A DNA stretch of 64,000 bases from Bdellovibrionales bacterium (GCA_965200875.1 OZ241456.1:334588-398587), one strand, 5' to 3'; numbered from the stretch's first letter, positions 10,576 to 46,371 are shown. Numbers and translations: made by a program. The notes: generated from the sequence alone by a model not told the origin.

Positions 10576-10595
10576 TCAGTTGTTTGCAGGCTAGC

Positions 10596-10622
10596 TTATC
10601 GGTTGTCTTTTTGTGGACTTTA
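10596..10622 (-). promoter_or_regulatory. sigma-28 (FliA)-type promoter candidate for the 8002-10575 gene
   Basis: The minus strand reads TAAAGTCCacaaaaagacaACCGATAA (TAAA-N15-ACCGATAA). It is nearly identical to the 2600 copy. The -10 element ends about 20 nt upstream of the first in-frame ATG (10575). Confidence 0.4.
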
Positions 10623-10880
10623 GACTTTTATCTTAATTTTTTTAATGAAGCTCAAAAAAATCGTTTATTTTCCCAGACCATTAAATGCGCTCTCTCTTCC
10701 TTTTAAATGTGCGCACTCTTCCTTACAGGAAAGAAATGTTTTTTGAGTTTAGTCTTAGGTCCTGAAGTTATCTTTGGTCTTAATTTTTTTTTAATATATG
10801 TCGAAACAGTAATAAGAGGCAGTCGTTCTTTAAGCCGTGAAGCGATGTTTTTTAAATTGTGAATATGAGGTAATTTGTAG

Positions 10881-12254
10881 ATGATATTACGAAAAATGTT
10901 GAGAAATAAAGTCATTATGGTGGTTGGTGTTTTAATCAGTTTTTTAACTTTGGCTTTTCTTTTTTCTTCCTGTGGTTTTGTGAACAAGGGAGGGCCAGGT
11001 TCTTTTCAGGTGGCAAGCCAAGGAGGGCCGGGGGATGGAGAAACGCCCACTTTAGGCCCCCGCTTGCGGGATAACCCCCAATTGGCCGAAGAGAAGTGTG
11101 AGGATAATGATCGTTGTAAGGAGACCTGTCGGGATATGTACCCTGATAGCTATAAAGAATGTTATGGCCTTACCATTCAACAGGTATCCGATGTGGAAAA
11201 TGTTTTTTATGCTCTCGTAAACGCAGATTCCGAAGAGCTGGAAGATATCGATGGCGATCATCTAAAAAATTATCTGAAGATTGGTTTAGATAGCTGGCAA
11301 GAAAGAGTGATCGAAAAACTGACCAGTAAAGATAATCGAAATGCCCGATTTTCCAATATTCTAACATGGATTGTAAACGAAGAAAAAGATGTAGTTCCCC
11401 TTTTGGAAAAAGAAGATCCGAAAAATGAAATTCTTGAACAAATTGTGCTGAAATATTGTAATGTGGCAGATAGTGGCAGATGTGGAAACACGGATAGTGC
11501 AAATCCCCACACTGGAGTTAATAATTTTCCGACAGGTTCTTGTGCTCTTAAGATAACAACCTCCACTGAGCCTAGTTATCGTTTTCCAAGTACTCCTAGT
11601 TGTACGGCTGGTAGCCCTGCTACTCACTATGTTTGTCCAGAGCTTAGTTATTTCCCGGAATACTCCATTGCTCATTCATTTACTACATTTAACGAGAGTG
11701 ATGTTAGTATTGTTACTCAAGATAACCGGGGTTTTGCCTATGGTAACACTCAAGATGGTAAAGATGGTGTGGTGTTTGATTATGCGGATGATGGGGGATT
11801 ATATTATTGCTATCATTTAGCAGTCAAAACATCAGATCCTACCAAATGCTCAGGTGGGGGCTTTAATACTAACTTTATTGGTGACGATTACCCTTGTATC
11901 ACTTTAACGCATAAAAAATTGGCTGAGATAGAAGATGATGACGATAAAGATCTGTTTATGTCTTTGGTGGGAGTGGGAAAGGTGTTTTTTAACAAAGCTG
12001 CTGACGATCTCAAAACAAGTGCTTTTGCTCTTGGGCATAAGCTTTTGGAAAAAGCCTGTAGTGGAGGCACTGATACATCTCTTACTCAATGTATGAGTGT
12101 GTTTTATTGCTGGTTAAATGATCATATAGGTGACGCAGAGATTTCAACAGGTACAGACAGTGAAAAATCATTCCTAAGAAACTCTGATCTTCAGGAAAAA
12201 ATAGAACTGAGGATTGCTGATTTGGAAGAGTGCGATTATAGCAATTTTGACTGA
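10881..12254 (+). CDS. Cys-motif lipoprotein, paralog family member A
   Basis: Lipobox LAFLFSS|C. Motif C-x5-C-x3-C-x11-C (CEDNDRCKETCRDMYPDSYKECY). Shares its C-terminal block (ALGHKLLEKAC...YCW) with the next gene. GAGG RBS upstream. Confidence 0.65.
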   Translation: MILRKMLRNKVIMVVGVLISFLTLAFLFSSCGFVNKGGPGSFQVASQGGPGDGETPTLGPRLRDNPQLAEEKCEDNDRCKETCRDMYPDSYKECYGLTIQQVSDVENVFYALVNADSEELEDIDGDHLKNYLKIGLDSWQERVIEKLTSKDNRNARFSNILTWIVNEEKDVVPLLEKEDPKNEILEQIVLKYCNVADSGRCGNTDSANPHTGVNNFPTGSCALKITTSTEPSYRFPSTPSCTAGSPATHYVCPELSYFPEYSIAHSFTTFNESDVSIVTQDNRGFAYGNTQDGKDGVVFDYADDGGLYYCYHLAVKTSDPTKCSGGGFNTNFIGDDYPCITLTHKKLAEIEDDDDKDLFMSLVGVGKVFFNKAADDLKTSAFALGHKLLEKACSGGTDTSLTQCMSVFYCWLNDHIGDAEISTGTDSEKSFLRNSDLQEKIELRIADLEECDYSNFD

Positions 12255-12324: not shown

Positions 12325-13698
12325 ATGCAAAAAATCAGTTTAAAATCAAAGACAAAGTGTGCTTCTTTTTTTAAAAGAGAAAAAAAGAGCTTAGGATTTT
12401 ATCATATCCGTTTTTTCTCTGGCAAAGGTATGGGAGGTCCATCTTGGAGAAAAATTATCACTTTTTGGCTTCTTATTTTTTCTTTGGGTAGTCTTTTTTC
12501 ATGTGGGCTGGCCAATTATAATTTTGGTTCTTCTAATTCTTCTGCGACTGTTCTGGATTCTCGATCTAATGATGATTCCACGGGAGAGTTTAATTCTCCT
12601 AAAGGTCGTCTGGAATCCTCTGACACTTGTTCCAAGAGTGAGGACTGCAAAGAGCTTTGCGATTCCATGTTGCAAAGATTTTCCTTCCAGAAAAAATGTT
12701 ACGAATATAAGGAAGTGGAAGTGCAGTCTTTTAGAGATGTTTATAACCTTTTAGCAGTGGGAAATCCCAGAAAGCTTTCGCGGGTGGATACAGAGAAGAT
12801 GGAAAAATTTTTAACTTTCGGCCCTGAGCTTTGGCAAGATGCCATTTACGGATTTGAAAGACAGAGAAAAGAAGATTGTACACCCAATGACGGGGCTGAT
12901 GATCCCACAGAGCGTGAGGATTGTAAGCTTGAGGGTTATTATAAACAGGAGGGTTACTGGAGTGGTGGAGCTTTGGCCGCTTTAGAGTGGATCGCAAAAA
13001 ACGACTGGCTGGCTGAGCTTATTGTAAGGCATGATGAAGACCTTGTAATTATGACAAGCCTCTTGGATGTTTTAGCTCATGGAGGAGGAAAAGTTTTTAA
13101 AGACCCAGATAGTGCTATAGAAACCCAAGACAATAAAAACAAAACTTGCAACTTGAATCTCATAGAATTGGATCTGAATGCTAATAGGAATTGTGACAAA
13201 CCAGCCACCGCTAATAATGAGGATTTTAACAAAGATAACGAATGTAGCTTTAAAGACTCTGATTTTGCAAATTTTCACGGCAGGCTTTCTCCTAACTCAG
13301 ATATCAGATTGGGTAATACACCCACCAGTATTTCCGTAAATTTGGAAAAACATTATAAGGCTTTTGGTGCAGACTGTGTAAGTGATGATCGTGAGAACTA
13401 TTTTATCATCGCCGTGGCGGAAAAAAACAAAAACTCATTAACCTTGGGTCATCAGATGGTGGATAAACTTTGCTCTGACGACATCACTTGCATCCGGTAT
13501 TTTTATTGTCATATTAAAAATGGGTTCAAACAGGGTGACTTGATCTCAGCCACAGACCGTTTCACTACAACAGGCACCCCACCAAAATCTGAACCCAAAC
13601 CCGCCCAAGAAGGCACAATACTGCATTACATGGATGATAATAAAGGATCGATTAGTGGCTTTAGAGCTAACACTTACAATAATTGCTATTTTCCATAA
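12325..13698 (+). CDS. Cys-motif lipoprotein, paralog family member B
   Basis: Same 457-aa length as the preceding gene. Lipobox LGSLFS|C. CSKSEDCKELCDSMLQRFSFQKKCY motif. C-terminal TLGHQMVDKLC...YFYCH. Strong RBS GGAAGGAGAG at 12325, but the signal peptide starts at Met36 (12430), so the true start is uncertain. Confidence 0.6.
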   Translation: MQKISLKSKTKCASFFKREKKSLGFYHIRFFSGKGMGGPSWRKIITFWLLIFSLGSLFSCGLANYNFGSSNSSATVLDSRSNDDSTGEFNSPKGRLESSDTCSKSEDCKELCDSMLQRFSFQKKCYEYKEVEVQSFRDVYNLLAVGNPRKLSRVDTEKMEKFLTFGPELWQDAIYGFERQRKEDCTPNDGADDPTEREDCKLEGYYKQEGYWSGGALAALEWIAKNDWLAELIVRHDEDLVIMTSLLDVLAHGGGKVFKDPDSAIETQDNKNKTCNLNLIELDLNANRNCDKPATANNEDFNKDNECSFKDSDFANFHGRLSPNSDIRLGNTPTSISVNLEKHYKAFGADCVSDDRENYFIIAVAEKNKNSLTLGHQMVDKLCSDDITCIRYFYCHIKNGFKQGDLISATDRFTTTGTPPKSEPKPAQEGTILHYMDDNKGSISGFRANTYNNCYFP

Positions 13699-13832: not shown

Positions 13833-14453
13833 TTATGAAACGAATCCTAATACAGCAAATCCAACGATTATCAGACTTCCTAGAATACCCACTAAATTCA
13901 ATGTGAGGTCTTTTTTTAAGAGAGACATATCTTTTTTGATTTCCAAACGCAAAAGTTCTATGTCTTTTTTTACATCAGCGATATCTTTTTTGGTTTCGTT
14001 GCGCAGAAGTTCTATGTCTTTTTTGGTTTCGTTGCGCAGAAGTTCTATGTCTTTTTTTACATCAGCGATATCTTTTTTGGTTTCGTTGCGCAGAAGTTCT
14101 ATGTCTTTTTTGGTTTCGTTGCGCAGAAGTTCTATGTCTTTTTTTACATCAGCGATATCTTTTTTGGTTTCGTTGCGCAGAAGTTCTATGTCTTTTTTGG
14201 TTTCGTTGCGCAGAAGTTCTATGTCTTTTTTTACATACTCAATTTCTTTTTTTACATCAGCGATATCTTTTTTGGTTTCGTTGCGCAGAAGTTCTATGTC
14301 TTTTTTTACATACTCAATTTCTTTTTTTACATCAGCGATGTCTTTTTTAGTGGCCATTACATTTTCCTGAAAATAGATCAGGGTATTGGCTTGTTGTTCT
14401 GTGAAGCCGTTTTCTTTAAGATATTCCACTTGTTTGATTAAAGCAGTAGCCAT
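13833..14453 (-). CDS. DUF1640/Bdr-like coiled-coil tandem-repeat protein, C-terminal membrane anchor
   Basis: N-terminus ...YLKENGFTEQQANTLIYFQENVMATKKDI resembles the DUF1640 head. Then 7- and 11-aa units (KKDIADV, KKDIELLRNET, KKEIEYV) iterate. Ends in a hydrophobic tail LVGILGSLIIVGFAVLGFVS. Confidence 0.6.
   Translation of the reverse strand: MATALIKQVEYLKENGFTEQQANTLIYFQENVMATKKDIADVKKEIEYVKKDIELLRNETKKDIADVKKEIEYVKKDIELLRNETKKDIELLRNETKKDIADVKKDIELLRNETKKDIELLRNETKKDIADVKKDIELLRNETKKDIELLRNETKKDIADVKKDIELLRLEIKKDMSLLKKDLTLNLVGILGSLIIVGFAVLGFVS
13940..14345. repeat. coding tandem repeat, 87-nt higher-order unit (21+33+33 nt) about 3 copies plus variants
   Basis: catcagcgatatcttttttggtttcgttgcgcagaagttctatgtcttttttggtttcgttgcgcagaagttctatgtcttttttta recurs essentially unchanged. 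It lies inside CDS 13833-14453. Confidence 0.85.
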
Positions 14454-14508
14454 AGTAAGTTACTTGTATCAGTATTTTGCAAAAAAGTCAATATTACTTA
14501 GAAATCCT

Positions 14509-14554
14509 GGAAAAAGCTGTTAACGAACTGTTATTACTTGATTTTTTTATAAAA
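14509..14554 (+). repeat. dispersed ~45-nt repeat, copy 1 (orientation A)
   Basis: GGAAAAAGCTGTTAACGAACTGTTATTACTTGATTTTTTTATAAAA. See the copies at 20593, 22057, 30147 and 33703. Confidence 0.8.
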
Positions 14555-14699
14555 AATGTTAAAAATAATTAGCTTGAAAAACCCTTAACACTTGATAAGA
14601 GGTGGAAAGTGGTATAGCTTTTTAATCAGTAGGGTGAGTAAAGTGATCATTTGTAAACTTAGGGGTAAAATATTAAGCTCATATAAGGAGGAATGGCAA

Positions 14700-15014
14700 G
14701 TGTCCACAGAAAATCATACAGAAAACCATATAGTATCTTTTTCTCTTTACACAAAGGTGTTGTCCACTTTACTGGTTTTGACAGTTTTAACTGTGTTGGT
14801 TGCTCAAATGGATTTTGGCGTATTTAATGTTCTGATTGCAATGGGCATTGCTAGTGTCAAAGCGGTTTTGGTTTTGCTTTTTTTTATGCACCTGAAATAC
14901 GACAATAAACTTTTCCCGGTGATTTTTTTTACCGGAGTATTTTTTTTGGCAATTTTATTTTTATTTTGTGAGTTTGATATTATCACTCGCATTCCTGAAT
15001 TTTCTGTATTGTAG
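14700..15014 (+). CDS. cytochrome c oxidase subunit IV family protein (COX4_pro-like), orphan
   Basis: Three-TM small protein. Motif ...VLTVLTVLVA...NVLIAMGIASVKAVLVLLFFMHLKYD is typical of prokaryotic subunit IV. I place the start at GTG 14700, 7 nt after AAGGAGG. The ORF-track start at 14592 has no RBS. No other oxidase subunits are nearby. Confidence 0.65.
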   Translation: MSTENHTENHIVSFSLYTKVLSTLLVLTVLTVLVAQMDFGVFNVLIAMGIASVKAVLVLLFFMHLKYDNKLFPVIFFTGVFFLAILFLFCEFDIITRIPEFSVL

Positions 15015-15061
15015 CATTGTATAAAATGTCTTTCACAAAGCTACTCACCTTGTATGCCTGA

Positions 15062-17512
15062 CTAATTTCGATACTGGCAAGTTCGGCTTATTGGGTCATA
15101 ATAAGTACCGGGTGGGCAACAGGTGTTGTGTGTGCGATCATACACAGATCCGTTTGGACAGCAAATATTGCCTGTGCCATGATTATAGTTCCATCCGTTT
15201 GGACAACAGGTGCCGTTTGAGAAATTATATCCGTCTGGACAACATGTTCTACCTCCTACGGAATAATATCCGTTTCTGCAACAACCAGAATCAATAGAAT
15301 GTCCCAAAGCACAAGCCCTATTGTTTTTAACACATAATACTGTTCCTGCCGGAGTGTTTATATATTCGCCGGCTCTGGCAACCTTGCGAATATGTCCAGG
15401 CATACAGCAAGCTCCACTGGAACTTGGACAACAATTTCCATTACGGAGGTGTGGAGCGGTGCGAGGACATCGCTCACATCTATCACCATAGCGTAAATGA
15501 TTTCTCGGACAGAACCAGCACTTATTGTCGTATTCGTGTTGTCGCCCCCTCGGACAACGGTTGCAACTGTTGTTATAGTGCCAGTATCTGTTACGCGGAC
15601 ACTGGCGACAGTATCCGAAATAATGGTGTCTTCTGTCACGATGGCAACGGTTGCATTTCCCATCGTAAAAATACTCAGCTCTGCAACTATGACATCCTCC
15701 ATTGTGTTCATATCGTCTATACACCGGACAACGGTTGCAACTTCCCCAGTAATAATGTTGCCCCCTCTGGCAAGTGTTGCATCTTCCATTGTAGTAGTGC
15801 GGAACATGTCTTGCACATTTATTACACCGGCCATTATAATAATACCTTTCATTGAGGGGACAGCGGTTGCAGGTTCCCCAGTAGTAATGTTGCCCGCTCG
15901 GGCACCGGTTACAAGTCCCGCTATAATAATGTTGTCCGCGTGGGCATTGGTTACACCGACCTCCATAATAATACTTCCTAGAGCTTGGGCAACGATGGCA
16001 GGCCCCGCTATAGTAATGTTGCCCTCGTGGACAGCGATTACATCTGTTATTATAGTAATGTCTTTGGTAGCTTGGACATTTGTTGCAGGTTCCTCCATAG
16101 TAATACTTCCTTGAGCTGTTGCATCGGTTACACCGGCCATTATAATAATATCTTTCATTGAGGGGGCAACGGTTGCAAGTTCCACTATAGTAATGTTGCC
16201 CGCTCGGACATTTGTTGCAGGTTCCATCATCGTATTTATAGGGTGTGGAGCTTGGGCATTCGTGGCAACTCCCGTCGTAGTAATGCTCTCCACTGGGACA
16301 TTTATTGCATACATTACTGTGGTAGTGTGGAGTCCCCTCAGGGCATCTGTTACACACATTACTATAGTGGTGTGGAGTCCCCTCAGGGCATTTGTTGCAT
16401 TGGCCATCGTAAAAATGAATTTTATTGGCTGGGCAGGTGTTACAGCTCCCATTATAGTAATGTTCTCCACTTGGGCACATATTGCAGGTTCCACTATAGT
16501 AATGTTGCCCGCTCGGACATTGGTTACATGTTTGATTGTGATTGTAGTAATAGGGTTTATCTGCTGGACAAGCACATTCCTGATTTGGAGGGGTTCCTCT
16601 GTGCCGAGTTTCCCCTACGCATACACATTCCGCGCTTTCTTGATCCCACCTCTGCCTTGTTTCACAAACCCCCGCACATTCCAGTTCCCCGGAGGATTTT
16701 ACACTTACCACAATTTGCCCCTCTGGACATGCCATATTCTCTGAACTACTGGCATGAATCAAAGCCGAACATTGGATATTATCACCACCTGTATAAGCAG
16801 ATGGTGAATCAGAACAAGGATCATAATCAACACAGTCAGGTGTTCCATCGGGCTTAAATCCACGAAAATGTTTATAAGGCCCTTCGTCCTCACAACTCAC
16901 ACTCTGGAAGCCCTTTCCGGTATGACAATCTAGGGGAACACACTTATCTTCAGTGCCATCACATGCCTCATTCGAACACTTGTAATCCAACACACAGGTT
17001 TGATGATAACAACCGGTTTTATCTGTGGCGGAACAACCCCCACCCCCTAAAGTTTCATTACCCCTAAGATAAGGCTTTGTGTAAAACACAATTAAAAGTC
17101 GCTTTGGGTGATCCTTATCAATATTCACTTCCTTTTTCAGCTCAATCCCCTGAATGGAAATAAAATCATCTTGTGTAAACTGTCCTATGGATGTAAGGGG
17201 ATCTGAGAGATTTCCTTCATCATCCAGCTCATGCAACAAACCACTTTGGTGTTCTTTGTCGCTCTCCGAAAGCCGGGCAGGCTTTGTTATATCCTTGCAA
17301 TTAATTTCATTACTTAAAAACTCTTTTGTTCTGTGAGATAAAACCTGCTCTGCCAGATTGGTTCTGATTACCTGCTCGGACTTTACCGATATTCCTATTA
17401 TTTTTAATGTGCTCAAGCTTATAGTGAGGCCCAGAGTGCCAGCCACTAAAATGCCAGCTAGTCCTCCAAATCCTCTTTTTCCTCTTAAAAAACTTGTGTA
17501 ATACATTTTCAT
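15062..17512 (-). CDS. type IV (minor-)pilin-like protein with 25 CxxC modules and vicinal-Cys C-terminal region
   Basis: N-terminus GKRG|FGGLAGILVAGTLGLTISL has prepilin-like Gly-Phe plus a hydrophobic helix but no Glu5. Its core is homologous to the upstream gene. Residues 329-693 hold 25 modules, C-x2-C-P-x-G-x-H-Y-Y-x-G-x, with period 13-16 aa. Residues 694-816 hold 7 CC pairs (CCPxG(Y/W)...). By my count there are 86 Cys in 816 aa. Confidence 0.7.
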   Translation of the reverse strand: MKMYYTSFLRGKRGFGGLAGILVAGTLGLTISLSTLKIIGISVKSEQVIRTNLAEQVLSHRTKEFLSNEINCKDITKPARLSESDKEHQSGLLHELDDEGNLSDPLTSIGQFTQDDFISIQGIELKKEVNIDKDHPKRLLIVFYTKPYLRGNETLGGGGCSATDKTGCYHQTCVLDYKCSNEACDGTEDKCVPLDCHTGKGFQSVSCEDEGPYKHFRGFKPDGTPDCVDYDPCSDSPSAYTGGDNIQCSALIHASSSENMACPEGQIVVSVKSSGELECAGVCETRQRWDQESAECVCVGETRHRGTPPNQECACPADKPYYYNHNQTCNQCPSGQHYYSGTCNMCPSGEHYYNGSCNTCPANKIHFYDGQCNKCPEGTPHHYSNVCNRCPEGTPHYHSNVCNKCPSGEHYYDGSCHECPSSTPYKYDDGTCNKCPSGQHYYSGTCNRCPLNERYYYNGRCNRCNSSRKYYYGGTCNKCPSYQRHYYNNRCNRCPRGQHYYSGACHRCPSSRKYYYGGRCNQCPRGQHYYSGTCNRCPSGQHYYWGTCNRCPLNERYYYNGRCNKCARHVPHYYNGRCNTCQRGQHYYWGSCNRCPVYRRYEHNGGCHSCRAEYFYDGKCNRCHRDRRHHYFGYCRQCPRNRYWHYNNSCNRCPRGRQHEYDNKCWFCPRNHLRYGDRCERCPRTAPHLRNGNCCPSSSGACCMPGHIRKVARAGEYINTPAGTVLCVKNNRACALGHSIDSGCCRNGYYSVGGRTCCPDGYNFSNGTCCPNGWNYNHGTGNICCPNGSVYDRTHNTCCPPGTYYDPISRTCQYRN
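15434..16528. repeat. coding tandem array of 42-45-nt CxxC modules (25 units, diverged)
   Basis: Periodicity read from the translated protein. Several units are near-identical (CNRCPLNERYYYNGR twice; CPSGQHYYSGTCN three times). Stop codons are depleted in several frames on both strands. Confidence 0.8.
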
Positions 17513-17518
17513 GTTAAC

Positions 17519-18682
17519 CTATTTAGGTATGTCAGGTTCAGGTACGCAAACTATCGGTGCTCCTCCCGGTTCAGGGAGAGGACATTCACATTTTTTAGTA
17601 TCTGGATTATACCTTGTAAGGCCTGTACAGATTATTGGTTCATCAGGTTCATCAGGTTCAGGGGTTGGTTCATCAGGTTCAGGGTTTGGATCATCAGGTT
17701 CAGGCGGAGGCACAATACATTTTAAACTTATTTTGTTCCAAATTTTTCCAGTCGGGCATTTACAGGTCACCCCGGTCCAGATTTTGTCATAAGGACAATC
17801 ACAATTTGACCCAATCCTTCCCCCGGAACAGATACGGCTACAAATCGGATCCCCGTCTTTGTCAAAACCCTGTAAAAACTCGTCAGCATTCGGACAACTT
17901 AAATTCCCAGTTTCAGGAATCGCCGGAAATGCCCGGCAATCTTCTTCACCGTCTGCTTTTCTGCCAACATAAACTTGACCGGGAGGGCAGGTTGGTTTTT
18001 CCTGGCATCTTGGGTTTCCATCTCCGTCAAATCCGCTTAAGTATTGTTCATCTGAACAAGACACACTCAAACTATCTCCTATACTTTTGCAAGCTGATAA
18101 CGAACAGCTGGTGATTTTATTATTATCGCCGGGGTCATGCACGATTTCCAAATCACAGGATTGGTGATAACAGCCTTTGTTGTCAGTGGTTGAACATTCT
18201 CCATCTCCCAAGGTTTTATAAGAACCTAGTTGAGGCTTGCTGTAATAAACAGCAAAAGTATATTTGTCCGAACCTTCGTTTGACAGTTCAAGGCTTTTTA
18301 CAGATATCAGATCGCCTTTAAAACCTCCGGTGGCAAGATAAAGTATGTCGTCTGAAGTGTTGGGACTTGGAGGGGTATTGTTTCCCTCAGTCTTCATATA
18401 TTTACCGCCGGTGAGTTTGCCTTTTTTATGGGTGCGGTCAGAGAGCCTAGAAGGATCTAAATTCCATTTGCAATCCTCCTCATTGCTTAACATTCGCCGA
18501 ATGGTGATATACAAATCCTGCTCCTTTTGCTGAGTGCTGGACACCTGAGCAGAGCTTATGGTTATTTGAGAGAGCTTTAAAACGGCTAGACCTAAAACAA
18601 GTCCAACCCCGGTGGCTACAAATACTTCCACCAGACCAAAACCTTTATTGCCAAAGAGAATTTTTTTCATACATGTGGTCAT
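17519..18682 (-). CDS. type IV pilin-like protein (class III signal peptide) with Cys-rich globular region and Pro/Asp/Glu-rich tail
   Basis: MKKILFGNKG|FGLVEVFVATGVGLVLGLAVLKL has Gly-1, Phe+1, Glu+5 and a hydrophobic helix. C-terminal PPPEPDDPNPEPDEPTPEPDEPDEP linker, then CxC/CP motifs. A 6-nt gap separates it from the downstream paralog. Confidence 0.75.
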   Translation of the reverse strand: MTTCMKKILFGNKGFGLVEVFVATGVGLVLGLAVLKLSQITISSAQVSSTQQKEQDLYITIRRMLSNEEDCKWNLDPSRLSDRTHKKGKLTGGKYMKTEGNNTPPSPNTSDDILYLATGGFKGDLISVKSLELSNEGSDKYTFAVYYSKPQLGSYKTLGDGECSTTDNKGCYHQSCDLEIVHDPGDNNKITSCSLSACKSIGDSLSVSCSDEQYLSGFDGDGNPRCQEKPTCPPGQVYVGRKADGEEDCRAFPAIPETGNLSCPNADEFLQGFDKDGDPICSRICSGGRIGSNCDCPYDKIWTGVTCKCPTGKIWNKISLKCIVPPPEPDDPNPEPDEPTPEPDEPDEPIICTGLTRYNPDTKKCECPLPEPGGAPIVCVPEPDIPK

Positions 18683-18804
18683 GGTTTTTAAAGTTCCCTC
18701 TCTTTAAACTATACTGGCCTCGCAATAAAATTCTTGTTTTCTTGCAAAAAGTGTCTTTAATGTGCTTGGTTTTACTCATTCACTTTAAATTGGTTCAAAA
18801 TGGC

Positions 18805-18832
18805 GTATCGGTCTTCTTTGATTAGGACTTTA
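18805..18832 (-). promoter_or_regulatory. sigma-28 (FliA)-type promoter candidate for the pilin-like operon
   Basis: The minus strand reads TAAAGTCCtaatcaaagaagACCGATAC (TAAA-N16-ACCGATAC). It lies about 120 nt upstream of the 18682 start. Confidence 0.4.
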
Positions 18833-19063
18833 GTGGGGAGAGTGAAAAAAACTGGTCTTATGGGACAAAAAACAGCTTAAAAAAGCTTAAAAACAAAAAA
18901 AACTTGAAAGAGGCAAAATGAGGTATATACTTATCTACACGACTATTGAATGGGTCTTGGATAAATACTCCTGCTCCATCCAATACTTAGAGCTTGATAT
19001 GATAAGATTTTTTTTTGATGGATGATTATAAATTTCGGAAAAAATAAGAATTAAGGAGGAAAG

Positions 19064-20230
19064 ATGAAATCATTTTTACGAATAAGAGCTTGGCTTTTTT
19101 TGTTTGTATCCTGCTTTTTTACAGTAATGATTGTCTTGAGTTGCACCCAGGAGGGTCAGGAAAGTGGCACTTCCACCACCACAGGTTCCGGCACCAGGGA
19201 TAGGAATGATGAACCAGAAGAAGATGATGATGACAAACCCTTACTCACCTGTGAATTTTCCTCCTGTAGCGGAAGCGACTGTTGTACAGAAGATGATGAA
19301 AAATGCGAGGAATGGTGTAGTAAAGACAAGTATTTAAGTCTAAGTGGAGATGAGGAGGATAAATGTCTTGGTGTTGGTAAAGAGCCTGGGCTGAAGAAGG
19401 AAACAGTGGAAAGACTAAACGAAATATTTACTGGTAAGTTTAAAAGAAATAAAATTAATAGGAAGAACTTGGACAATCTAAAAGACAGGGATGATATAGA
19501 ATTAATATGTGCTGCTGTAAAAGAGTTGGGTACAGATATATTGAACAATCATATTGAAGATTATAAAGAAAAACACGCCAAGTTTTTTTTATCTTGGCTC
19601 GCTAGAGAGAAAGTGGCTTTGGAGATATTTGAAAATGCAGAAGACGATGACGGTATTGAAATGTTGAAAGACCTTTTAAAAAAAGCAGGTAACAGTAGCT
19701 CAGATAACGAAAGCGAGCAGATTTTGATAGGTCTTACGAAAAAAATAGAGAACCTGGATGATAAAGATGAGAAGTTGCCGATTTTGGCTTTGGCTGATGA
19801 ACATAACAACGAACGATTGATAGAGTATTTCCATGAGACTTTTATCGCAGATGATGATGAGGCAATATGTGAAGAAGACAAAAGTAATAATTTACCAGAA
19901 CCGGTTTCCGGTTCTGGTAAATATAGTAACGTCGCAGTAGCGGAAGACAACAAAGAGCAAGCCTGTGTTTTAGCGGTTTACTGTAAAATAGCTGATGATG
20001 GAATAATCGCCGAAGACCGAGATGATTTCAGAAAGGCTATGGCCGATGCTACGGAGTATTCACTTGATTTTATAGAAACAGATATAGAGGATGGAGGTTT
20101 AGACCCCGGCGAAAATACTAATAATGCTATTCATGATCTGACAGATGACGACGAGGAGGAGTGGTCTAATAACGCTTGTGAGAATTTGAAACACTACTGG
20201 GACAACGATGGTCTTGATCTTGGTTTATAA
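19064..20230 (+). CDS. highly acidic Cys-motif lipoprotein, paralog family member C
   Basis: Strong RBS AAGGAGG. Lipobox MIVLS|C. Motif CCTEDDEKCEEWCSKDKY...C is related to genes 10881 and 12325, and the C-terminal ...EQACVLAVYCKI is related to their ...YFYC/YCW block. Very Asp/Glu-rich. Confidence 0.6.
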   Translation: MKSFLRIRAWLFLFVSCFFTVMIVLSCTQEGQESGTSTTTGSGTRDRNDEPEEDDDDKPLLTCEFSSCSGSDCCTEDDEKCEEWCSKDKYLSLSGDEEDKCLGVGKEPGLKKETVERLNEIFTGKFKRNKINRKNLDNLKDRDDIELICAAVKELGTDILNNHIEDYKEKHAKFFLSWLAREKVALEIFENAEDDDGIEMLKDLLKKAGNSSSDNESEQILIGLTKKIENLDDKDEKLPILALADEHNNERLIEYFHETFIADDDEAICEEDKSNNLPEPVSGSGKYSNVAVAEDNKEQACVLAVYCKIADDGIIAEDRDDFRKAMADATEYSLDFIETDIEDGGLDPGENTNNAIHDLTDDDEEEWSNNACENLKHYWDNDGLDLGL

Positions 20231-20411
20231 ATGAATGATTGAATTTAGGTTTTTAGATAGTACCCTTTGAAAAACCTCTGATAAAACAGGTTACTCGCCT
20301 GTTAAAGAAAAAGCTTCCCACCTCAAGCATAAGGTATGAGTCACTTTATTTTTTATCTTTTAAGCTGTTTAATGAGTCGATCCTGAATAAGTCTGTTTAG
20401 TGAGATATGCT

Positions 20412-20520
20412 CTTACCAATACTTCACCGCTCGGTCTCAAACATGCGTTTTGCCACACACGCGTCTTTTCAGTCGCGGTGTGCTCAAAGCCGAACTCGCC
20501 TCGTGGTGAGTATCGGTAAG
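20412..20520. ncRNA. GC-rich structured intergenic element (candidate ncRNA or cis-RNA; family and strand unknown)
   Basis: Outer stem CTTACCAATACTTCACC (20412-20428) pairs with GGTGAGTATCGGTAAG (20505-20520), about 15 bp with one mismatch and one bulge. Inner hairpin GCCACACACGCG-tcttttcagt-CGCGGTGTGC (20450-20483). Local GC is far above the flanking intergenic DNA. Confidence 0.25.
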
Positions 20521-20592
20521 ATCTTTTTCACTGATACTTTTTGCAAGAAAACAAAGGTTGTATTGTAAAATCTTGCAATTTTTCCCGAACCG

Positions 20593-20622
20593 TTTATAAA
20601 AAAAATCAAGTGATAACAACGC
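20593..20622 (-). repeat. dispersed repeat, copy 2 (orientation B, diverged distal half)
   Basis: The plus strand reads TTTATAAAAAAAATCAAGTGATAACAACGC. It is inverted relative to copy 1. Confidence 0.65.
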
Positions 20623-20747
20623 TTTATTATTTATTCAGAACCGACTATTTCCGAGTGTATAGAGTGAGAATGTTCTTGTAACATCTGCTTATAACTCTCC
20701 GTCTTTTCATTCAGCATGACATTTACGCCTTTCAACTGGTTTTAAAT

Positions 20748-21299
20748 CTATTCTTTTTTCGAAAACCATACTCTCATATCTTCTTTTAAATCTTTAAAAC
20801 CACTTGTCATATCAATTCTCAAACCATCAATTTTTTTATTTGTATCAGTGATATGATTACTCAAATCTTTTTTCGAATCATCAATTTTTTTATTTGTATC
20901 AATTCTCAAATCATCAATTTTTTTATTTGTGTCAATTCTCAAATCATCAATTTTTTTATTTGTATCAATGATATAATTACTCAAATCTTTTTTCGAATCA
21001 TCAATTTTTTTATTTGTGTCAATTCTCGAATCATCAATTTTTTTATTTGTATCAGTGATATAATTACTCAAATCTTTTTTCGAATCATCAATTTTTTTAT
21101 TTGTATCAGTGATATAATTACTCAAATCTTTTTTCGAATCATCAATTTTTTTATTTGTATCAGTGATATGATTACTCAAATCTTTTCGGATATGTCTCAT
21201 TTCAATGGCAAGATAAACCAAGATAACTATCCCTATCACAGAATATACGGGGACTTGGTCGCCTAAATAATTAAAAAAAAGAGGTGCAAAATTACTCAT
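20748..21299 (-). CDS. tandem-repeat (TDTNKKIDD) coiled-coil protein with N-terminal membrane anchor
   Basis: N-terminal TM helix VYSVIGIVILVYLAIEM. Then 18-aa units (KKDLSNYITDTNKKIDDS) and 11-aa units (RIDTNKKIDDL) iterate. The KID-type repeats are reminiscent of Borrelia Bdr proteins. Confidence 0.6.
   Translation of the reverse strand: MSNFAPLFFNYLGDQVPVYSVIGIVILVYLAIEMRHIRKDLSNHITDTNKKIDDSKKDLSNYITDTNKKIDDSKKDLSNYITDTNKKIDDSRIDTNKKIDDSKKDLSNYIIDTNKKIDDLRIDTNKKIDDLRIDTNKKIDDSKKDLSNHITDTNKKIDGLRIDMTSGFKDLKEDMRVWFSKKE
20812..21185. repeat. coding tandem repeat, 54-nt and 33-nt units
   Basis: atcatcaatttttttatttgtatcagtgatat(a/g)attactcaaatcttttttcga and atcatcaatttttttatttgtgtcaattctc(a/g)a recur. 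They lie inside CDS 20748-21299. Confidence 0.85.
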
Positions 21300-33671: not shown

Positions 33672-33702
33672 AAAGCGGACTGTAACAAATAAACAATCGT
33701 TC

Positions 33703-33748
33703 GGGAAGAAGCTGTTAACATATTGTTTATAATTTGATTTTTTTATAA
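33703..33748 (+). repeat. dispersed repeat, copy 5 (orientation A), 33 nt upstream of aroB
   Basis: GGGAAGAAGCTGTTAACATATTGTTTATAATTTGATTTTTTTATAA. Confidence 0.75.
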
Positions 33749-33780
33749 TTTTCTGGAAACATAGCAAGGTTTTACAACGA

Positions 33781-43267: not shown

Positions 43268-44947
43268 ATGCTCTCAGAAACTGCAAAACAAAAGATGATA
43301 ATGAACCGCTTTTATATTACAACGCCTCTTTATTATGTCAACGACAAACCCCACTTAGGCACTGCCTATAGTACTGTTCTGGCTGATGTTCTCAATCGTT
43401 ATCATCAACTTGTGGGATACGAAACTTTTTTTTTAACGGGTGTTGATGAACATGGCCAAAAAGTTAGTCAAGCTGCGAAACAACAAAATATTCCGGTTCA
43501 AACTTATTGCGATCAAATGTCCAAAAGATTTGAGACCGTTTGGAAATTAATGGATATTTCCTACAATCGCTTTTTCAGAACTACTGCAAAATGGCATAAA
43601 AAAGCTGTTCAAAAGTTTCTGCAAGAACTCCACGACAAAAAACAAATTTATGAATCCACTTATGAAGGCTGGTACTGTGTTAGTGAAGAAACTTTTTATA
43701 CTTCAAAAGATCTGATAAACGGAAAATCCCCTTCCGGGAAAGAAGTTATAAAAATAAAAGAAAAAAATTATTTTTTTAAAATGTCCTCCTACCAAAAGCC
43801 TTTATTGGAATATATTGACGAAAACCCTGATTTTATCCAGCCCCCTCATCGAAAAAATGAAGTTATAAGCTTTTTAAAGCAGGGGTTGAGTGATTTATGT
43901 ATCAGTCGACCCAAAAGCAGAGTGAATTGGGGAGTGGAGATTCCTTTTGACACGGATTATGTGACTTATGTATGGGTGGATGCTTTGCTGAATTATATCA
44001 CCGGCGTAGGCTGGCCTCCGCAAAGTGGTGGAGGGAGAAAACAATTCTCTTTCACCAATCCCCTAAAAAGTGAGGACTTTGAAAAGTGGTGGAAAGAAAC
44101 GGGAGCTGTTCATCTGATAGGAAAAGATATTTTAATCACCCATTGCGTATATTGGCCTTGTTTGTTAATGGCTTTGGGAATCAAACTTCCAAAAACCATA
44201 TTGGCACATGGCTGGCTTTTGAATCAATCCCAGGAAAAAATGAGTAAATCAAAAGGGGATGTGATGGATCCCTTGAAGATTTTAAACAAATCCTCGGCAG
44301 AAAAATCTTCAAAAAAATTATCCAGCGGGACAGGAAAATCAAACCCAAAGAACAATATACAATTTTTTGATTCAGACAGCCTTCGTTATTTTCTCATTCG
44401 GGATGTTCCCTTGGGAAACGACTCCCCTGTCTCTCATACCCTTATTGCCAACAGAATTAATGAAGACTTAGCCAACAACTTTGGCAATTTAATCAGTAGA
44501 ACCACAAAAATGATTCATCAAGGCTTTGAATCCAAAATTCCTGAAAGAAACTGCAAAACAAGTAAAAACCCCTTGATCGAAAATCTGAGACATAAAGGAA
44601 TAGAAGTTACAACAGAACTAAAGGCAAATCTTCTCCGCCCTCATCTTATACTGGAAAATATTATTAATTTGTTGAATGAAACAAACCGATTTTTGGAAAA
44701 AAGTGCTCCTTGGAAAACCATTAAGACCAATAAGCAGGATACAGGGGCTGTTTTACGATCCGCTCTGGAAATTATTTATTTGTCTGCCGTATTGCTGAAA
44801 CCGGTTATGCCAAAAAAAATGGATCAGCTATTAAAAAGCCTCGCTTGCCCGGATGAATGGCCGGTGGAGAACTTTCAAAGCGGTTTTTTTCCAAAAGCCG
44901 GTGAAACGATCCAGGAATTTCCACCTCTTTTTCCCCGTATAAACTAA
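43268..44947 (+). CDS. metG: methionyl-tRNA synthetase (short form, no C-terminal tRNA-binding domain)
   Basis: YITTPLYYVNDKPHLGTAYS (HIGH-type) and KMSKSKGD. Likely start at MIMNRFY (43295). There is a Ser/Lys-rich insertion after KMSKS. Confidence 0.95.
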   Translation: MLSETAKQKMIMNRFYITTPLYYVNDKPHLGTAYSTVLADVLNRYHQLVGYETFFLTGVDEHGQKVSQAAKQQNIPVQTYCDQMSKRFETVWKLMDISYNRFFRTTAKWHKKAVQKFLQELHDKKQIYESTYEGWYCVSEETFYTSKDLINGKSPSGKEVIKIKEKNYFFKMSSYQKPLLEYIDENPDFIQPPHRKNEVISFLKQGLSDLCISRPKSRVNWGVEIPFDTDYVTYVWVDALLNYITGVGWPPQSGGGRKQFSFTNPLKSEDFEKWWKETGAVHLIGKDILITHCVYWPCLLMALGIKLPKTILAHGWLLNQSQEKMSKSKGDVMDPLKILNKSSAEKSSKKLSSGTGKSNPKNNIQFFDSDSLRYFLIRDVPLGNDSPVSHTLIANRINEDLANNFGNLISRTTKMIHQGFESKIPERNCKTSKNPLIENLRHKGIEVTTELKANLLRPHLILENIINLLNETNRFLEKSAPWKTIKTNKQDTGAVLRSALEIIYLSAVLLKPVMPKKMDQLLKSLACPDEWPVENFQSGFFPKAGETIQEFPPLFPRIN

Positions 44948-46371
44948 AAGTCTTTGGAGTAAGAGTCTTTTCTGCGATTGGGTGTGGGAATATTCATGGA
45001 CTCCCTGTATTTGGCAATCGTCCGGCGCGCAAGATGCACCCCTAAATCTTCCTTCAGATGATCCATAATATATTGATCAGAAACAGGATCTTTTTTGTTT
45101 TCGTTTTTAATGTAAGATAAAATTTTCAATTTCACTACTTCACCGCTTATCTTTTCCCCTCTGTCTGTTTCAAGACCTGAGTTAAAAAAATATTTAAGCT
45201 CATATACACCATGTGGAGTATGAGCATACTTATTAGTGGTGACACGGCTTACGGTGGATTCATGTACACCGACTTCTTCCGCAATTTGCCTGAGAATCAT
45301 GGGTTTCATTCCTATAGACCCTTTTTTAAAAAATTCCATTTGATGTTTTACGATAGCTGAAGTGACTTTAAACATGGTCTTTTGACGCTGGTTAATGGAG
45401 CGAATCAGCCAAAGTGCAGAGTTCATTTTATGTCGTAAATACCGTTGTGTGGAGTCCAAGGGCAAAACTTTATCATTATCCAGCCCCCCTTTTAACATAT
45501 CCTGGTACACATGAGCCACTCTTAAGTGTGGCAAACCCTCTTCATTAATGGATACCCGATATCCATTTTCCTCTTTAATAATATACACATCTGGCGTGAC
45601 ATATTGAATAGGTTGTGTAACGAAACGGCGACCGGGTTTAGGTTCCATGGCAGTAATGATTTTATACAGATCCATCACTTCCTCTTCTGTCAACCCCATT
45701 TTTAAAGCAATAGCATTAAAGTTCTTGCTTTCCAAATCTGACAGATGGTTTTCAATTAGAGTAATCAGATCTTTAGTGTCTTCTTGATTTTGACGAGCCT
45801 GAATCAACAAACACTCTTTTAAATTTCTGGCTCCTACTCCGTTGGGATCCAAAGTATGTAATAGCTTGAGTGCCTTTCTTAAGGTGGACAAATTTGTGCC
45901 TGTTTCATTGGCTATGTGCTCTAGGGGAACAACCAAATAACCATCTTCATTCAAACGATCCACCAGTAAATTCAAATGTGCTTTCTCTTGATTGGAAAAA
46001 CCACTCATTTGAATTTGCCACACCAAGTGATCATAAAGGCTTTGTTCTGTGGAAATAACATTTTCTAGATTAAATACACCATCAGCGGACTTTACCTGAG
46101 ACTGCCTGGGGCCTCGCACAGAATAAGTGCTTGTAAACTCCATCCAAGTATGTCTTTCTGGGAGTTCTTCCTGATTGGATAATTCATCCATACTCTGTTC
46201 TTCCATTGTATCATGTACTTCCTCTAAAACCGGATTTTCCAGCAATTCATCTCTAACCGCTTGCTCTAATTCCATTATAGGGAGAGTAAGAAGTTTTATG
46301 GACTGTTGAAGTTGAGGTGTCATCTTCAGTTTTTGAGCCAGTTTCATTCCCATTTTTAAATGCGCCGACAT
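44944..46371 (-). CDS. rpoN: RNA polymerase sigma-54 factor
   Basis: Region I MKLAQKLKMTPQLQQSIKLLTLPIMEL. HTH ESTVSRVTTNKY. RpoN box ARRTIAKYRESM. Confidence 0.95.
   Translation of the reverse strand: MSAHLKMGMKLAQKLKMTPQLQQSIKLLTLPIMELEQAVRDELLENPVLEEVHDTMEEQSMDELSNQEELPERHTWMEFTSTYSVRGPRQSQVKSADGVFNLENVISTEQSLYDHLVWQIQMSGFSNQEKAHLNLLVDRLNEDGYLVVPLEHIANETGTNLSTLRKALKLLHTLDPNGVGARNLKECLLIQARQNQEDTKDLITLIENHLSDLESKNFNAIALKMGLTEEEVMDLYKIITAMEPKPGRRFVTQPIQYVTPDVYIIKEENGYRVSINEEGLPHLRVAHVYQDMLKGGLDNDKVLPLDSTQRYLRHKMNSALWLIRSINQRQKTMFKVTSAIVKHQMEFFKKGSIGMKPMILRQIAEEVGVHESTVSRVTTNKYAHTPHGVYELKYFFNSGLETDRGEKISGEVVKLKILSYIKNENKKDPVSDQYIMDHLKEDLGVHLARRTIAKYRESMNIPTPNRRKDSYSKDF

Follow-up and report, generated by a model that had tools for sequence, protein, structure and literature searches.

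Dispersed over 64,000 nucleotides of a Bdellovibrionales genome (OZ241456.1:334588-398587; this whole stretch is referred to below as the window) are five copies, here C1 to C5, of a short repeat, and two of them, in inverted orientation, bracket a 6-kb block of pilin-like, oxidase-like and lipoprotein genes. The repeat is very probably the left terminus of an insertion sequence (IS) of the IS5 family, and its five copies are best understood as separate relics devoid of a transposase, that is, as scars and not as recombination sites, the bracket formed by C1 and C2 being a by-product. In the mechanism proposed here, the left terminus would consist of a terminal inverted repeat (TAGTCGNNCGTGAAAAAG) followed by GTTAAC-N4-TGTTAT-YAC-TTGATTTTTTTATAA, a sub-terminal stretch that is found upstream of the transposase gene in intact elements and putatively contains its promoter and leader; the five copies would derive from separate insertions, each since deprived of the transposase gene and of the right end, and the inverted arrangement of C1 and C2 about the 6-kb block would result from two independent insertions. 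Read in this way, an apparent regulatory or recombination signal is transposon debris, from which neither phase variation nor cassette exchange should be inferred.

An earlier note on this DNA had described the repeat as about 45 nt long, and all five of its copies were found again at or near the positions it gave. C1 (14510-14553, + strand) and C3 (30147-30190, - strand) are 95% complementary across 44 nt; in pattern searches of the window, the 20-mer TTACTTGATTTTTTTATAAA, with at most three mismatches allowed, has four matches against 0.18 expected, and a 28-mer spanning the other half of the repeat has two against 0.00 expected. A profile hidden Markov model trained on 18 repeat copies matches the window at 30203-30144 (E 9.5e-18), 14496-14554 (2.7e-13), 20649-20591 (8.6e-12), 33691-33749 (1.9e-10) and 22088-22057 (2e-4), five matches in all; a sixth full copy was not detected, the model giving no further match in the window at E < 1. 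The orientations of the copies and their gene contexts likewise agree with the earlier description. The copies are thus real, but the elements are longer than had been assumed, about 55-127 nt: C2 extends to about 20523 and C5 to about 33777, and what had been taken for a diverged distal half of C2 is a terminal inverted repeat which is intact and belongs to a sister subfamily (TAGTCGGTTCTGAATAAA; it ends at 20647).

The identity of the repeat emerges from relatives in which the element is complete. When a degenerate form of the repeat pattern was scanned across one genome per GTDB species, a set in which the genome of the window is not represented, 12 loci were found in OZ241967.1, a 2.31-Mb metagenome-assembled genome of the Bdellovibrionales with about 80% nucleotide identity to the window over shared genes, and two in OZ241921.1; all other matches were singletons in unrelated taxa, and a scan of metagenomes with the repeat pattern gave 0 matches. 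At the loci of the two OZ genomes, GTTAAC is preceded by about 20-25 nt of shared sequence with a sharp onset, from which similarity runs for 1.5-1.6 kb, and two families can be distinguished, ISY (84-97% identity) and ISX (>99%). The ends are inverted repeats of 18-19 nt: in ISY the left end reads TAGTCGGTCGTGAAAAAG and the right end, as its reverse complement, TAGTCGCACGTGAWAAAC, while both ends of ISX read TAGTCGGCCCTGAA(T/C)AAA. The 445-aa open reading frame (ORF) inside one of the intact copies (L007:4063-5400) matches the NCBIfam model of IS5-family transposases (NF033578) with 467.6 bits, the cutoff being 275, as well as Pfam DUF772 and DDE_Tnp_1. The motif described in the window corresponds to IS nt ~20-56, on the inner side of the left terminal repeat, directly next to it, and upstream of where the transposase begins. 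A tRNA or rRNA promoter, considered as an identity for these multi-copy loci, was tested and rejected.

A complete element could also be assigned to the window's own lineage. The PdxJ protein encoded in the window is 100% identical to one on a contig of 1,831,459 bp, taken as the source chromosome, and a contig of equal length is listed as encoding a shortened transposase homologue of 262 aa (84% identity); a full-length member of the same protein cluster is found on a 1759-nt metagenome contig (L049), obtained in the project that also gave a contig (L001) 98% identical to the window. L049 contains a complete IS of 1569 nt with a 457-aa transposase homologue, a left end reading TAGTCGCCCGTGAAAAAGGTGTTAACGCACTGTTATTACTTGATTTTTTGATAA... 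and terminal repeats that match at 17/19 positions. All five copies align to this IS, starting from nt 1-19, and are thus colinear with it from its tip.

C3 (30148-30201, -) corresponds to IS nt 1-54 (51/54 identities to L049), and its terminal repeat (TAGTCGGGCGTGAAAAAG) is intact. The genes for DciA and the helicase converge on it, and it is the source of both their stop codons: it encodes the final six codons of the DciA/DUF721 gene together with its stop, an overlap already reported in the earlier note, and holds the stop codon of the convergent ORF for a 1192-aa superfamily 1 helicase. The terminal repeat is intact also in C2 (20523-20647, -), which comprises IS nt 1-127 (99/134, the tip being ISX-like), including the whole transposase leader; here GTTAAC is mutated to AATAAA, and a structured RNA-like sequence stands in place of the transposase ORF. 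C5 (33691-33777, +) covers IS nt ~1/4-90 (69/88 from nt 4 onwards, with one 1-nt insertion) and takes up 87 nt of the 109-nt gap that separates the ATG of the helicase gene (33671, -) from that of aroB (33781, +), the copy as first delimited ending 32-33 nt ahead of the latter, as had been stated. In C1 (14499-14570, +), IS nt 12-~62 are solid (40/43 in the core) and the tip, nt 1-11, is degenerate (12/19 over the terminal repeat); this copy lies in a divergent region between a coiled-coil gene (start at 14453, -) and a COX4_pro gene (GTG at 14700, +). C4 (22057-22088, -), a 32-nt core fragment (IS nt 19-50, 29/32) without the tip and without the -10 region, is situated between phoR and rpmE, and recurs without a difference in the metagenome contig that is 98% identical to the window. 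The genes neighbouring the copies comprise those for the COX4_pro protein, RpmE, DciA/DUF721, the helicase and AroB, and the interval from C4 to C3 contains a complete pstSCAB-phoU-phoB-phoR operon. A weak further match, a short fragment at 18723-18755 (+) between the gene for a 387-aa pilin-like protein and the lipoprotein gene, resembles the hairpin region of the transposase leader (..TTGTTTTCTTGCAAAAAG..; 85% over 33 nt, E 7e-4, with a run of 16/16 nt).

Comparison of orthologous host sites is consistent with this origin. Downstream of dciA the element is absent both from OZ241967.1 (locus L047) and from a relative with 85% identity in PdxJ (L048), where other genes are found, and the DciA tails of these two diverge from that of the window after ...LQKISKE, exactly at the first codons encoded by C3; upstream of rpmE, the motif is absent from three relatives (L044, L045, L046). 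The absence of the element from these sites thus argues that the window copies are lineage-specific insertions. Gene order differs from that of the relatives at every copy, and in L048 a homologue of the gene for an 816-aa pilin-like protein of the bracketed block adjoins dciA, which is weak evidence that IS relics mark old rearrangement junctions, in genomes that are rearranged everywhere; when synteny was anchored on rpmE, the relatives proved too rearranged for the 6-kb cassette to be compared.

In the 64-kb window, tblastn detected no transposase, and neither an internal IS fragment nor a significant right end was found; C1, C3, C4 and C5 are therefore one-ended relics and not the miniature transposable elements with inverted repeats known as MITEs. 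No inverted copy of the tip occurs within 8 kb of C1, C3 or C5 (C4 has no tip), no target-site duplication is detectable at C1, C3, C4 or C5, and, for IS right ends beside each copy, Smith-Waterman alignment gave nothing above shuffled sequences and a right-end profile gave no matches. A later tip-specific search produced only one possible partner for C2, a candidate right terminal repeat (GAGTCGATCCTGAATAAG, 20374-20391, +) that matches the C2 tip at 14/18 positions, in inverted orientation and 256 nt away; the candidate is weak (profile E 0.47, about 0.5 such matches being expected per shuffled 64-kb strand) and the pair is without target duplication. Provided that this partner is real, the segment 20374-20647 may be a MITE-like unit of 274 nt. 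The proposal that the repeat is REP- or MITE-like therefore came nearest among the options offered in the earlier note, in that the origin is a transposable element, but the MITE label does not suit four of the five copies and the likeness to repetitive extragenic palindromic (REP) sequences did not hold. A palindrome of the REP type, or of the bacterial interspersed mosaic element type, was rejected on folding: C1, C3, C5 and C4 fold at -2.2 to -4.0 kcal/mol, with z between -0.61 and +0.70 against shuffles.

Partial IS copies and solo inverted repeats are a known category (ISfinder/ISsaga), described as "scars of ancestral recombination events" (PMC3129680). Like the partial IS5-family copies of that category, the window relics carry the terminal inverted repeat and sub-terminal sequence of an IS with a DDE transposase, and are transposase-less, intergenic, lineage-specific and located at sites of altered gene order; they differ in that the IS is new, its transposase reaching no more than 49% identity with annotated plasmid-borne transposases of the IS5 family, and in that all of them are left ends, several stopping at IS nt ~50-56. 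With 55-127 nt they are also longer than bare inverted repeats. IS-derived MITEs resemble them in being short, non-coding, multi-copy and in sharing their termini with an autonomous IS; OZ241967.1 has two-ended elements of 125-165 nt, of which C2 may be a 274-nt counterpart, whereas at C1, C3, C4 and C5 there is neither a second terminal repeat in reach nor a detectable target-site duplication. A search of the literature for this particular IS returned general definitions only. A previously unnamed IS5-family element of uncultured Bdellovibrionales, comprising three or more subfamilies as well as derivatives of the MITE type, is thereby defined, and should be useful for annotating Bdellovibrionales genomes and for reading their many rearrangements. 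As a separate observation, many elements of 125-165 nt in OZ241967.1 (in oriented coordinates, for example, L002 739-882, 2240-2405 and 3642-3789; L007 285-408; L011 2019-2165) are bounded by the terminal inverted repeats of the IS and are without the GTTAAC...TTGATT module; they have the look of an abundant MITE family, sometimes stand head to head with IS tips, and none was found in the window.

Four observations weigh against reading the repeat copies as relics of IS left ends. With neither an intact IS nor a transposase in the window, the link rests on homology to elements elsewhere. The exact length of the target duplication (2, 4 or 6 bp) is ambiguous even in the two best-preserved copies, L020 and L011, whose flanks are identical (TAAGTA/TAAGTA and TATTTA/TATTTA): the match is 6 nt long if the element starts at GTCGG, and 4 or 2 nt long if it starts at AGTC or TAGTC, and in older copies the flanks differ. 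The core shared by C1 and C3 is 93-95% conserved despite the degenerate tip of C1, which could mean that the core is under constraint. Finally, all of the fragments (5-6 of 5-6) fall within the leftmost 8% of the IS, which simple random decay does not predict, the naive probability under uniform fragment survival being about 4e-6; the sole extra fragment in the flanks of the OZ loci is a left-end piece as well (L002 5775-5835). For several relics the match to the IS breaks off at nt ~50-56, which is also where alignment among the three subfamilies is lost. The left-only pattern hints at selection or at a specific mechanism of truncation; possible causes are selection for the leader or the promoter, a hot spot of recombination or insertion at TTTTTTTATAA, and the existence of unrecognised non-autonomous subfamilies sharing only the left module.

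The first of these causes leads to the alternative that has to be taken most seriously, namely that the left end of the IS is an exapted, portable promoter or leader, selected for driving the COX4-like gene, rpmE, aroB and the structured RNA; such selection would account for the survival of left ends only, and we regard it as the less probable reading, though one with a real claim to attention. The earlier note had proposed a promoter-associated module, and the repeat does span the IS region that contains the putative promoter and leader of the transposase. In every intact copy of all three subfamilies TTGATT-N17-GA(A/G)AAT is kept, although the spacers differ, and these hexamers are likely the transposase promoter; a scan with the sigma-70 consensus, a tool whose coverage does not extend to the promoter rules of Bdellovibrionales, finds in the intact IS of L007 TTGTTA-16-TAAAAT (9/12) inside the motif. 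Left ends alone are found, four of the five window copies aim at a nearby gene or RNA start, and a one-ended copy in OZ241967.1 (L014) stands 5 nt ahead of the ribosome-binding site of a TonB-receptor-like gene. C5, moreover, fills so much of the space between two divergent start codons that any intergenic promoter there must overlap it. As a general module for the window copies, however, the promoter is not supported. Only C1 retains an equivalent of the hexamer pair (TTGATT-17-AAAAAT, 8/12); in C5 the -10-like hexamer is weak (AAACAT), and from C2, C3 and C4 it is gone. The sigma-70 scan calls no promoter inside any of the five copies, and rpmE has a better one, TTTCCA-18-TATAAT, outside C4. 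C3 and a copy at L021 lie between convergent genes and so have no promoter target, and the number of copies aiming at starts is not significant.

Putative mobile promoters have been described by Matus-Garcia, Nijveen and van Passel, many of their families being IS fragments and some including riboswitch-like RNAs (PMC3575422), a precedent that favours exaptation. The window copies are similar in being near-identical non-coding sequences upstream of non-homologous genes, and different in that their promoters are putative and only 1-2 of the 5 retain the hexamers conserved in intact elements. Some reuse of the relics as 5' regions is plausible: the COX4-like gene and aroB owe most of their 5' regions to C1 and C5, which may supply promoter or 5'-untranslated sequence, and the leader in C2 may drive the adjacent structured RNA, while C3 and C4 are presumably inert. 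A broader conjecture, which we hold to be more doubtful still, is that the left ~55-130 nt of the IS (tip, promoter and leader) are a reusable 5' expression module in streamlined Bdellovibrionales, either selectively kept or cut at a T-run/TATAA hot spot after loss of the transposase, which would now head essential genes (aroB and the COX4-like gene) and, in C2, an unannotated structured RNA perhaps travelling with it as the 274-nt non-autonomous element. The survival of left ends only and the fusion of an IS leader to an RNA are accordingly offered as modest leads on the recycling of transposon ends as 5' regions.

Far less probable is that C1 and C2, with their tips outward, delimit a mobile insertion cassette, i.e. 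a transposase-less element of 6.15 kb (14499-20647) moved in trans by the IS transposase. The geometry fits, since two inverted left ends have their terminal repeats outermost, as in mobile insertion cassettes and compound transposons, with passenger genes and no transposase between them; a truncated transposase is found elsewhere in the genome, and the position of the 816-aa pilin-like homologue next to dciA in L048 indicates that the gene block has changed neighbourhood. The orientation reported for the pair is therefore right, but its significance as a bracket looks incidental: the terminal 11 nt of C1 are degenerate (GTCG changed to GAAA), no duplication is evident in the flanks (TACT... 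at one end, ...TTTC at the other), the tips belong to different subfamilies (ISY/L049-like in C1, ISX-like in C2), C2 has a nearer candidate partner inside the block, and the block contains the further IS fragment at 18723-18755.

The possibility that TGTTAAC-N4-TGTTAT is instead an operator of a host regulon, its direct repeats bound by a response regulator, for instance PhoB, which the window encodes, can be given very little weight. By inspection, the spacing of the half-sites (an 11-bp period, reminiscent of the Pho box) resembles sites of the OmpR/PhoB type, and the presence of the complete pst-pho operon between C4 and C3 invites the comparison; yet no such site is present upstream of pstS, which is the canonical target of Pho control, and the half-sites by themselves show no enrichment (4 matches against 2.8 expected), on which grounds the Pho-box reading was rejected. 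The motif, moreover, belongs to a mobile element and is missing from the orthologous promoters of relatives, and the genes beside the copies are functionally unrelated.

Weakest of all, and in our estimate negligible, is the idea of an invertible-segment switch in which the 6-kb block is turned round by homologous or site-specific recombination between C1 and C2. Their inverted orientation would permit it, and the earlier note had listed among its explanations sites at which the cassette could be inverted or exchanged by recombination, but the repeats are IS relics and share no unbroken run of identity longer than about 13 nt (ACTTGATTTTTTT), where RecA-dependent exchange usually requires more; nor do the degenerate tip of C1, the lack of a target duplication around C1...C2 and the separate candidate partner of C2 suit such sites. 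As the earlier note had observed, there is no recombinase in the window: the 50 ORFs scanned with Pfam, a set exclusive of three ORFs at 61.7-64 kb, contain no recombinase, integrase or transposase domain.

Directly downstream of the leader in C2, the structured RNA-like element (20395-20522, -; 128 nt) is not derived from the IS. It folds at -54.8 kcal/mol (z -6.0) and has homologues in two relatives, L011 (7715-7850, -) and L021 (1545-1668, -); among the three sequences there are five compensatory pairs, the closing stem covaries, and a core of GGCAAAAC..TGTTTGAGACCGA is conserved. No match to it was found in Rfam even at E <= 10, the single Rfam match of the window being one tRNA; a covariance model run against all sequences gathered for the analysis recovered the three training members only, and a metagenome scan with the core yielded 36 loci, none of which was confirmed by the covariance model (best E 0.077). 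In the window no ORF follows the element, and in the relatives it precedes genes for a 478-aa secreted protein (by eye, outer-membrane channel-like) and for an Rpn/PDDEXK-like protein; because these genes are unrelated, a classical riboswitch is unlikely.

Some further features of the window and its relatives are recorded here. The bracketed block is flanked by genes for two repeat-rich coiled-coil membrane proteins (CCDC90-like) in the same orientation (13833-14453, -, and 20748-21299, -), with tandem DNA repeats of 33/54 nt and about 60% mutual identity in the repeat region. The 816-aa protein encoded within it (15062-17512, -) is prepilin-like, with many Cys-rich 'CNxCPxGxHYY' repeats and no Pfam match, and its homologue directly after dciA in L048 (4518-5363) is 56% identical. 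A tandem pair of 457-aa ORFs without Pfam match is located at 10881-12254 and 12325-13698 (+), and a 36-nt inverted repeat, 89% complementary and unrelated to the IS motif, has its arms 8 kb apart at 2595-2630 and 10592-10627. The gene rpoN (sigma-54) is present at 44944-46371 (-); the repeat does not match a -24/-12 promoter. In OZ241967.1 (L047, 1-2125 and 7032-9889), only pstS, pstC and pstA-like genes are left beside pdxJ, a CBASS-like SMODS/HORMA/AAA gene set is found about 5 kb further on, and about 9 kb including an intact IS lie between pdxJ and dciA.

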